DNA of 63,745 nucleotides, the filler included, from Hausera hauseri (taxonomy: Eukaryota): assembly GCA_046269625.1 (NCBI GenBank). It is 10 parts of 10 records of this genome, joined end to end, with 100 filler letters (N's around TTAATTAATTAA, not from the genome) between each part and the next. Parts side by side here need not be neighbours in the genome. Positions count along the whole stretch, not along the records: positions 54,837 to 59,006 come from JBJURY010723325.1; 9 more parts are not named here. One strand, written 5' to 3'. How positions within the stretch are numbered: the stretch's first letter is position 1; each line of letters opens with the position of its first letter. Shown here in pieces: positions 54,900-57,800 of the stretch. Both the position numbers and the translations under genes were made by a program. Under the pieces are notes generated by a model, which saw nothing but the letters and a program-made list of their open reading frames with translations, searched no databases and was not told the DNA's origin.

Positions 54900-57800
54900 T
54901 TGCATTATTTTCCCCATTGCTGTACCAATGCTTGGATATCCTGACTCTTTAGATTTGGTGGAAAGTTGCGGCTGATACTGTAAAGAATAAAGTCAATGAT
55001 TGAATAGACGTAGTACTTAAGTATAACACAACAGTTATCATACATGTCACTAAGGTAATCGTTGTGATTCTGTTTAAATAAAACTTATAGTGGAAGGTAG
55101 CCAGATGACGTTGGGTTATCTCTGTGTTTAGGGCTGCACCAGTTGCAGTCTCTCTCATTAACTGTCAGCTTGGGTTGTCTACTTCTAACGGTTTCGTTAG
55201 ATCGCGTATGTTAATTCGGACCCAGCTACGTCTACTCTGACGTCGTAGCAGTATTGCTTTAATTGCTCTTACCAACATTATTATAACTGCTACTAGAACT
55301 ATCGGATTAACTAATATTATTTCTAAGAGGAAGTGTTTATATATTGCACATGGGGGTCTTTGCGTTACCCCATCGGTAAGCGTAATTATCTCATAAGGTA
55401 ATTTTACTCTTGCTTCCCTTTTGGTAAGCGCTCATATTAATTTGGTAGAGGTTATTATATCGTTGTCATGTAAGAACTGTAAAATGACTGTATATCTTGT
55501 ATTAGGATCTAAAGCCGCGCATGACACTACCAAATTGTCGGGAGGTATAACTCCTTTTGTGAGTATTGCATCCCGTTTCTTACAACTAAACATTACTTTA
55601 ACGAAATCGAGATCTGGTTTTATAGGTATTATTAGTGCAGTCGAGGCTGCTATGATTGTTACGTTATACCATATAGAGCGTTTTTGACGGTAGTAAGAAG
55701 CGTAAGTCTCAATTAAAATAGTCATCTCCTTTTCATCAGCCGAAGATTGCACAAATGGCGTCGTGATTCCTTCTTGTATTTCGTCATACTCTTTTACTTT
55801 TATATCGTATGTACATTGTTGGTCCTTCTCGTCTTAAGCTATTTAGAAGTTTACCATTTTCCTTTCGATACAGCGTATAGTTAACGTCATATATTCTTCC
55901 TCGTGTCACGTTGCAATACACTCGCTGTTGTTCATCAGTAATTACGCATTTTATTATCACCTGAGTTATCTCTCATCGTTATTTTTATCCATCGAATATA
56001 CTCCAACTCAATAATAGTAATAATTTCGATGAAACTTCTTCCACTCTTAAATCCAATCGAACTTGCGATCAACTGGTTGAGTATTATTTCATTTAAAGTT
56101 TCCTTCACTTTCCGCCGTGTAGGGATATTTATTGATCTATAAAATGTAGTGTACTGACTACTATAGTAATCTCCTTTCTTAATAAACGTAAGATACACGT
56201 AATGGACACCTGAGTTTTCCACTATACATTGTGTTTCATTGATCCCTGAATGGAGTAGACAATCGTACTATCGTTTATTGGGGTCTCTTCCGTTATCATC
56301 CCAGGGTATCAATTGTATTCCTATCATGTAAACTGTGGCAATTGTTCGCGGGTGCTCCAGATCGTACTTTTTTGACCTTTTCTTGTATATGTTATACTGT
56401 ATTGTAGAGTTTTCATTAACATGTCTTCCTTTATAATAGTTGAGTGTCTTATTTTAGCCTTTTTGATTTCCTGTTTAGTTATTTGTCCTAGTATTTCAGG
56501 AAGGAACATGATAATAATTAATACCATACTGTACTTTATTTGACTAGGTCCACTTGTTGCGTCTACTTTGACTGTTTTCTCCTGATACTTCGTACTAACT
56601 CTTGTTCATGTTTTCTTAGCTCACTGTCTTTAGCGGCAGATTTACATCTATTGACACGAACTTTAAGTGAAACATTATTTTTCTTCAAACAGATGTTTGG
56701 TAGATTTACCTTCTCCACTTGGTATGGTCCTTTATATGGTCTGTCCAATTTAGATGTCTTACCTTTCTTAATTACTGGTGAGTGCAACAACATTTTATCT
56801 CCTATTTTACTTGTTGGTTGTTTAGTTTTCATGTCTTAATATTTCTTACATTTTAACTTATAGTCCTTCTGATTATCTCGAATTATCTTATATGCTAATT
56901 GTAGACGTTCTTGCATTAGCTGCTTATATTCTTCTACTTCCATCAAATGTGAAGTAGGTTTTCCATTGGTAGTCTCGCGTCCCTTAAATACATCAAATAG
57001 AAGAGTGTTTCTTTGGTATCCTCATGAAACGAGGTCCGATTTACAAAGACACATGTATTGATGTATTCATTCCAATCGTCCTGTCTAGTATTTACTACTG
57101 TTTGCAATTTTCCTTTCAAATCTACAATATATCTTTCCACCATTCGGTTATTATCTGGATGCCCGGGTGTGGATCGTAGTTTTAGTATTCTCAGAATGTC
57201 GTGTATGACTTGCATTACGGTTCCCGTTAAATTTGATGCCTGATAAGTTAGAAGAATTTGCAGAGCTCCAAAATGAAATACAATGTTTTCCACAAATTTC
57301 TCGGCAATCGTCTCTGCCTTCATGTTGGCCATGGGTAAGATGACAACCCAACGGGTGAAGTAGTCGATAAAGACTAAAATAAGTTTGTTTCCATTCCTTG
57401 TTAATGGTAATTGTCCTGTTATATCCAATGCGATAAACTTAAATGATGCTGCAGGTTGCCCCATACTTTGAATTTTGATTCCGTGTTCTTCCGGGTGGCA
57501 CATAGTTTATAACTATCGCACCGTTCCTGCACGTCTTTTTTATTGTTGATCAATAATATTTTCGTTTGAATTTATTAAGCGTTTTACTTGTTGATTGCTG
57601 TCCGCCAAGTAATCCGTCATGGCACTGGGTTAACAAAACTGCTCTGTTTTTCTTCAGAATCACCAAGGCGGGTCCGTTCTGATGAATAAAATATAGGAAT
57701 CCTTCCTTCTCTTCGTACGCTTTGCTGAATCGAGCCAGGTGACGGGTTAATTCTCTGTCAACTGGTATAGTTTTATCTTTTATATATTTCCTAATGGCTC

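Follow-up and report, generated by a model that had tools for sequence, protein, structure and literature searches.

A decayed membrane-protein gene behind the integrase of a truncated Ty3/gypsy element in Hausera hauseri

The truncated element and its surroundings

The window, i.e. the whole stretch of DNA that was analysed, comprises 63,745 nucleotides of Hausera hauseri (assembly GCA_046269625.1) and consists of ten contigs joined by N-linkers; all positions are window-wide. OGT-like and SLC28 genes in it mark the genome as that of an animal. The element under study, D, lies on the minus strand of the contig at 54837-59006. The features of this contig, from upstream to downstream of the element, are as follows.

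58247-58461, minus strand: host exon of an SLC28 concentrative nucleoside transporter (phmmer against PDB, E 6e-9 to CNT3)
57850-58149, minus strand: C-terminal half of RNase H, with which the truncated element begins (PF17917, E 2e-16, profile positions 45-105)
56566-57849, minus strand: integrase, frameshifted, with H2C2 zinc finger, core at 57506-56943 and GPY at 56733 (PF17921, E 1.6e-4; PF00665, E 8e-6)
56486-56527, minus strand: signal-like peptide, 69 codons past GPY (hydropathy 3.1 over 10 aa)
55330-56485, minus strand: ectodomain of about 385 codons, broken in three frames (from the sequence; fold inferred from the relative P0007)
55477-55521, minus strand: repeat motif C..L.PN...V.I, common to both repeats of P0007 (ungapped profile scan)
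55270-55329, minus strand: transmembrane (TM) segment (Kyte-Doolittle 2.83 over 19 aa)
55168-55269, minus strand: cytoplasmic tail with the basic cluster RRQSRR at 55245 (from the sequence)
54952-55164, minus strand (in the part from 54949 upward that forms the lower end of the interval in the preliminary description): 71-codon open stretch in the TM frame beyond a stop, a candidate addition to the ORF

The domains of D follow the Ty3/gypsy order (RNase H, H2C2 zinc finger, rve core, GPY), with the reverse transcriptase (RT) lost. KGPY is located at 56733 on the minus strand, and KTVKVDAT... runs into MVLIIIMFLPEILG, followed by Q (Met at 56527, Q at 56485). Four pieces of the ectodomain contain N-glycosylation sequons, and CAALDPNTRYTVILQ is found at 55521 on the minus strand. 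Signal and TM assignments, here and in P0007, are hydropathy-based. The signal frame of D differs from the GPY frame, and it is possible that the surface protein of D had a separate ORF. No LTR repeat pair was found at D, which is truncated and whose contig ends, no purine run of at least 9 was found in 54837-55200, and no polypurine tract in 54952-55164. The preliminary description had reported a signal peptide, an ectodomain, a TM segment and RRQSRR behind the integrase, and all of these motifs are present on the minus strand as listed above.

The pieces of the ORF are spread over all three frames and contain internal stops. Stop-free runs of at least 60 codons cover 100% of 55168-56527, versus 11% in first-order resamples; none of 500 resamples matched the open-frame coverage of D, for region limits picked after inspection. 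The coding strand of the ORF (A 0.385, C 0.17) resembles that of the D integrase and of the elements A, B and C elsewhere in the window, and differs from that of another Gypsy family, E/F (A 0.30, C 0.26-0.28); from this likeness it follows that the ORF has long been part of the element. It is a decayed type-I membrane gene borne by the element.

Element D begins at about 58149, part-way through RNase H, roughly 100 nt past the SLC28 exon and in the same orientation. A candidate splice donor, GTAAGA, lies at 58246-58241 at the end of that exon, and D probably sits in an intron of the SLC28 gene. The stretch 58340-58190, considered as an RT thumb, was ruled out as such and belongs to the SLC28 exon. 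The idea that D continues element C, to be checked by a read spanning the RT of C and the RNase H of D, did not hold: D is 5'-truncated behind the host exon, and since this exon precedes its RNase H such a read is impossible at this locus.

An intact relative and the fold of its ectodomain

The protease-to-RT stretch of C was used as a query and gave 314 Pol proteins, the best 120 of which were used. Among these, the best match of D Pol is P0007 (348 summed bits), ahead of a double-Pol entry (323) and the next protein (254); P0007 is also the best non-duplicated match of C Pol (239 versus 208 bits). Identity to D is 39% in the RNase H region (P0007 residues 673-873) and 42% and 34% in the integrase. 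P0007 is a single frame of 1644 aa with protease, RT, RNase H, integrase, GPY, signal, ectodomain, TM and tail. Its signal sequence stands 75 aa past GPY, in frame with Pol, and its ectodomain of 299 aa consists of two C..L.PN...V.I repeats and a Ser/Thr stalk. Residues 1-15 resemble the end of another aspartic protease module, which hints at a duplicated protease upstream. Both proteins have the build of a type-I membrane glycoprotein (signal, sequon-bearing ectodomain, one TM, basic cytoplasmic start), and the succession of Pol, signal, repeated beta-sandwich modules, TM and basic tail is common to D and P0007.

Tails of at least 100 aa occur in 26 of the 107 integrase-bearing matches among the best 120 of 314 Pol proteins, and a tail with both TM and motif in one of the 107, P0007. 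In the tree built from integrases (49 rows, among them 45 of the 95 full-core sequences), D pairs with P0007 with a support of 92/87 and sits on a long branch. The tree built from RT (41 rows, with 40 of the best 120 RTs) does not place C firmly; the lead of P0007 there is 191 versus 187 bits. Through this one intact relative, the membrane tail with a fibronectin type III (FN3) type fold is well supported as a trait of the lineage.

A scan of the genome contigs yielded one locus (L001), which ends just past the integrase. Word-based searches found no homologue of the last ectodomain piece of D among 780 candidates, and none of the D integrase among 340 at E up to 1e-10, a threshold that is probably too strict. 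PDB sequence searches with 55938-56267, with the second ORF of A and with the P0007 ectodomain returned nothing significant, and the Atlas held no usable match for the P0007 ectodomain. The sole match of 55938-56267 in a HMMER search of 1.84 billion representatives, P0005, was rejected as a homologue; it is a tandem-repeat ORF.

The single-sequence model of the P0007 ectodomain has a mean pLDDT of 50, with 52-68 in most of module 1. Residues 6-92, which make up module 1, form seven strands, and the model contains a second module of beta structure. VIA-align, run on module 1 alone, aligned 82 residues to fibronectin (Z 9.1, rmsd 2.6); on a scale on which Z under 8 is common, 5 of 48,161 chains reached Z of at least 8, and most of the matches listed were FN3. 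Foldseek gave 22 matches at E up to 0.001, of which those listed are FN3-type proteins; its best rows were tandem FN3 pairs, and the fold neighbours include cytokine receptors, e.g. IFNAR and IFNGR. Module 1 of P0007 thus models as FN3 in a low-confidence model. One 110-aa piece of D gave a model too poor to search (pLDDT 37), and a fold search of a viral library was unspecific. The Pfam FN3 profile matched neither the D pieces, at thresholds of E 0.1 or 1, nor P0007, at a threshold of E 1, and the Pfam fusion proteins matched neither the D pieces nor the P0007 tail, so that neither was recognised as a canonical env. The FN3-like ectodomain of the preliminary description is supported as far as the intact relative models as FN3. 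By analogy with the model, the D ectodomain probably comprises two or three FN3-like modules.

In an ungapped profile scan with the two P0007 repeats, LDPNTRYTVIL of D is the best of 127,396 window positions (34 versus 20.5). The other 119 proteins (of the best 120 of 314) offer 143,792 positions, not one of which reaches 22, and none of 3000 shuffles matched the score of D. A weaker second candidate lies at 55915, 131 codons upstream; the spacing of the repeats in P0007 is 130. Part of the motif is generic to FN3 domains, in the form L.P.T.Y.V. Alignments of the whole ectodomains of D and P0007 fell short of significance, being equalled by 30-244 of 1000 shuffles. When a gapped profile was built from P0007 alone, the D motif came second, behind a chance match, and no internal repeats within D were detectable by pairwise alignment. 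The shared Cys and the kinship of the Pol proteins argue for common descent of the two ectodomains, as judged from sequence; independent capture could also have produced them. An element-borne FN3-type membrane gene behind the D integrase is very probable.

Related elements in the window

Element A occupies 1-6692 on the plus strand, B a contig at 6793-15820 on the minus strand, and C 59107-63745 on the minus strand; none is on the contig of D. Their features are as follows.

671-2600, plus strand: element A, decayed class III fusion glycoprotein of the gB type, upstream of the protease (PF24664, E 1.2e-25 and 1e-7)
4442-5560, plus strand: element A, integrase with GPY at 5498 (PF17921, E 3e-17; PF00665)
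5747-6655, plus strand: element A, second surface ORF in the GPY frame, with signal-like peptide, two Cys-motif repeats, Ser/Thr stalk and charged stretch (from the sequence)
6793-14800, minus strand: element B, gag zinc knuckle, long spacer, ubiquitin-like piece, gB-type env and protease, ending at the contig end (PF00098; PF00240, E 0.001; Atlas PF24664 clusters, 0.94)
59107-63745, minus strand: element C, gB-type env, protease and RT, the contig ending inside RT (PF24664; PF00078, E 8e-36)

A gB-type env is present between gag and protease in A, B and C, with the gag knuckle seen in B. The fusogen formerly proposed inside the polyprotein of these elements is confirmed as PF24664, by Pfam in A and C and in B through the Atlas and its identity to C (79% at the nucleotide level). 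The internal env ectodomain is also preceded by a hydrophobic stretch. The ubiquitin-like piece of B (PF00240, E 0.001) is below the cut-off. At 9850-10842 (minus strand) this piece and a BCL2-like helix motif, recognised by eye, stand ahead of the env of B, as in the planarian element Burro. The BCL2-like and dUTPase-like stretches of these elements are our presumed assignments, made by visual comparison with motif patterns; Pfam gave no match for either.

The env, protease, integrase and second ORF of A all lie on one contig, which supports the idea of two glycoproteins on one element; set against it are the loss, at about 4210, of RT and the greater part of RNase H from A (junction mapped on P0007) and the presence of a chimeric junction elsewhere in the window (37920). 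No TM was seen in the second ORF of A before the contig ends at 6692. The internal repeat of this ORF was matched by 0-5 of 3000 shuffles, and its alignments to the P0007 ectodomain by 3 and 25 of 1000. The motif alone is not significant in A (697 of 3000 shuffles), nor is the alignment of A to the ORF of D (115-207 of 1000). When the repeats of A were added to the P0007 profile, the score of D rose from 5.0 to 10.4 bits, the best non-seed match. Homology of the second ORF of A to the tails of D and P0007 is suggested by these sequence comparisons. The integrases of A and D share 32-44% identity, equal to that of the env of A with those of B and C (mostly 33-40%), and these identities would fit D as a B/C-type 3' end. 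In the integrase tree A is not grouped with D (partial sequence, weak support), and the nearest relative of its integrase is not P0007.

Several further features were recorded in the window. A fragment at 35430-39478 (minus strand) contains a B-like gag-to-env spacer with 66% nucleotide identity to 12258-13823; at a chimeric junction at about 37920 this spacer abuts the RNase H-integrase of an unrelated Gypsy, and a Ser/Pro/Thr low-complexity frame of 289 aa comes behind that integrase. A second ordinary Gypsy, F, at 49974-54736 (minus strand), has 66% nucleotide identity to E and retains remnants of protease, RT, RNase H and integrase. A Polinton-like, protein-primed-type DNA polymerase B with an endonuclease VII domain is located at 19031-20992 (minus strand). 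An OGT-like gene at 45673-47197 (minus strand) consists of two long frames with many substitutions and is possibly a diverged or retro copy. A kinase frame ending in FATC lies on the minus strand at 32434-34815, where 32817-33413 is duplicated at 34225-34815 (94%). Strongly skewed tandem arrays extend over 26400-32200 and 49258-49873, the latter with a period of about 64 nt.

Interpretation and comparison with known systems

As a whole, the findings are best explained, with a probability of about one half, by D being a dead, 5'-truncated copy of a Ty3/gypsy element from a lineage in which a second membrane glycoprotein forms the end of the Pol polyprotein. The internal signal sequence would direct the nascent tail to the ER, where signal peptidase would release a type-I glycoprotein, the same design as predicted for the internal env of A, B and C. 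The lineage would be Burro-like and, like A, would also have a gB-type fusogen encoded between gag and protease. The FN3 protein, on the surface of the particle or of the producer cell, could then bind a host surface molecule and serve as the attachment partner of the fusogen. That the lineage of D combined the FN3-type membrane gene with a gB-type env is somewhat more probable than not. Attachment as the putative function of the FN3 protein is proposed tentatively, at somewhat below even odds. The full scheme is speculative and on balance unlikely: a lineage of invertebrate Ty3/gypsy elements would have a two-glycoprotein entry system within one polyprotein, made up of a class III fusogen of the gB type and a captured FN3 protein that binds the receptor, each released by its own internal signal.

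The main competing explanation, to which we give a minor but real share of probability, is that the FN3 membrane protein is captured cargo that modulates the host (as receptor decoy, adhesion mimic or block to re-infection) and has no role in entry. Rhabdovirus G and baculovirus GP64 need no partner for cell binding, and the presence of IFNAR and IFNGR among the fold neighbours of P0007 would suit such cargo, as would the ubiquitin-like piece of B; the cytokine-receptor matches, however, are no better than the fibronectin matches, and TM, stalk and basic tail have been retained, which is the build of a surface spike. Burro elements likewise carry apoptosis- and ubiquitin-related cargo in the described text (PMC6431247). 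It is improbable that the lineage of D and P0007 had no gB-type env, with the FN3 protein as its sole surface protein and the tail of A an independent capture or A itself a chimera. No sequence ties D or P0007 to an env, the motif of A is weak, P0007 is not the nearest match of the A integrase, the RT tree gives C no firm place, and single ORF3s with TM segments are described for rotifer elements in the text of PMC5408684. Against this, P0007 is also the best non-duplicated relative of C Pol (best 120 of 314), A and P0007 match in the order and spacing of their layout with a Cys before the motif in every repeat, and the loss of RT from A keeps the domain order, as a simple deletion would.

Very little weight is given to a tail that mainly tethers Pol to the membrane where Gag and env assemble, with an incidental ectodomain. 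In P0007 and A the signal continues the Pol frame, and a signal remnant would, we infer, stay on the integrase; yet a signal anchor alone would suffice for tethering, and 300-385 ectodomain residues with repeats have been kept in three divergent elements. An origin of the ORF of D as a fragment of a neighbouring host gene, or by chance, is hardly credible. A host exon adjoins D, no LTR was found that closes the element, and the ORF has no Pfam, PDB or library homologue, but P0007 has the same motif in an in-frame fusion to Pol, the strand composition is element-like and 0 of 500 resamples matched; the resamples, the P0007 layout, the tail survey and the motif scan largely refute this origin.

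If the preferred reading of D holds, the gB-type fusogen would have a candidate partner in the FN3 surface protein, which occupies the place of a canonical env. The entry of gypsy elements carrying gB is described as unexplained in the main text of PMC13524379, as herpes gB needs gD/gH/gL. If the proposal is true, such a two-glycoprotein retrotransposon would separate attachment from fusion in the manner of herpesviruses. Should the protein instead be a decoy, a polyprotein that carries it at the end of Pol, behind an internal signal sequence, is still of unusual design.

The gag-env-pol order is already known, both from Burro (PMC6431247) and from errantiviruses of nematodes, bryozoans and flatworms (PMC13524379), in which env stands between the other two genes. 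The giant planarian Gypsy Burro/GYPSM1 resembles A, B and C in having env in frame between gag and protease, with matches to fusion glycoproteins of the mononegavirus type, and resembles B in a ubiquitin-like piece before env; the gag-to-env spacer of B is shorter than Burro ORF1 implies, and the running text, as distinct from the map in Fig. 2A, names no FN3 or second membrane protein past the integrase (PMC6431247). The GAG-ENV-POL errantiviruses with HSV/gB-type env share the Ty3/gypsy Pol and the env upstream of it, and are annotated with three ORFs (PMC13524379). The words 'fibronectin', 'FN3', 'accessory' and 'polyprotein' are absent from the main text of that paper, and seven short env motifs from the present elements had no match in its supplements, in which cells over 400 characters are incomplete. 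Bdelloid rotifer LTR elements have variable ORF3s after pol (PMC5408684). Like the tail described here these are non-env cargo, some with TM segments; unlike the FN3 tail, they are GDSL, DEDDy, coiled-coil or short TM ORFs, and 'fibronectin' is absent from the text of that paper.

No FN3 membrane protein after an integrase was found in the literature searched, as judged from listings; the Burro figure, subscription journals or Repbase may hold one. The P0007 model shares with the FN3 domains of animal adhesion proteins and cytokine receptors the seven-strand sandwich and a motif of the L.P.T.Y.V type, but differs in its low identity (6-21% in the listed PDB fold matches), in having no Pfam FN3 match and in the Cys before the motif in each repeat. 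With the canonical errantivirus env (ORF3 of Drosophila gypsy, F-type) the gene shares the position behind the integrase, the signal, the ectodomain and the TM; it differs from it in having no fusion-protein match and in the FN3-type fold modelled for P0007, whose tail is in frame with Pol and is not a separate spliced ORF. 'Env-like' ORFs called from signal and TM therefore need not be fusogens.
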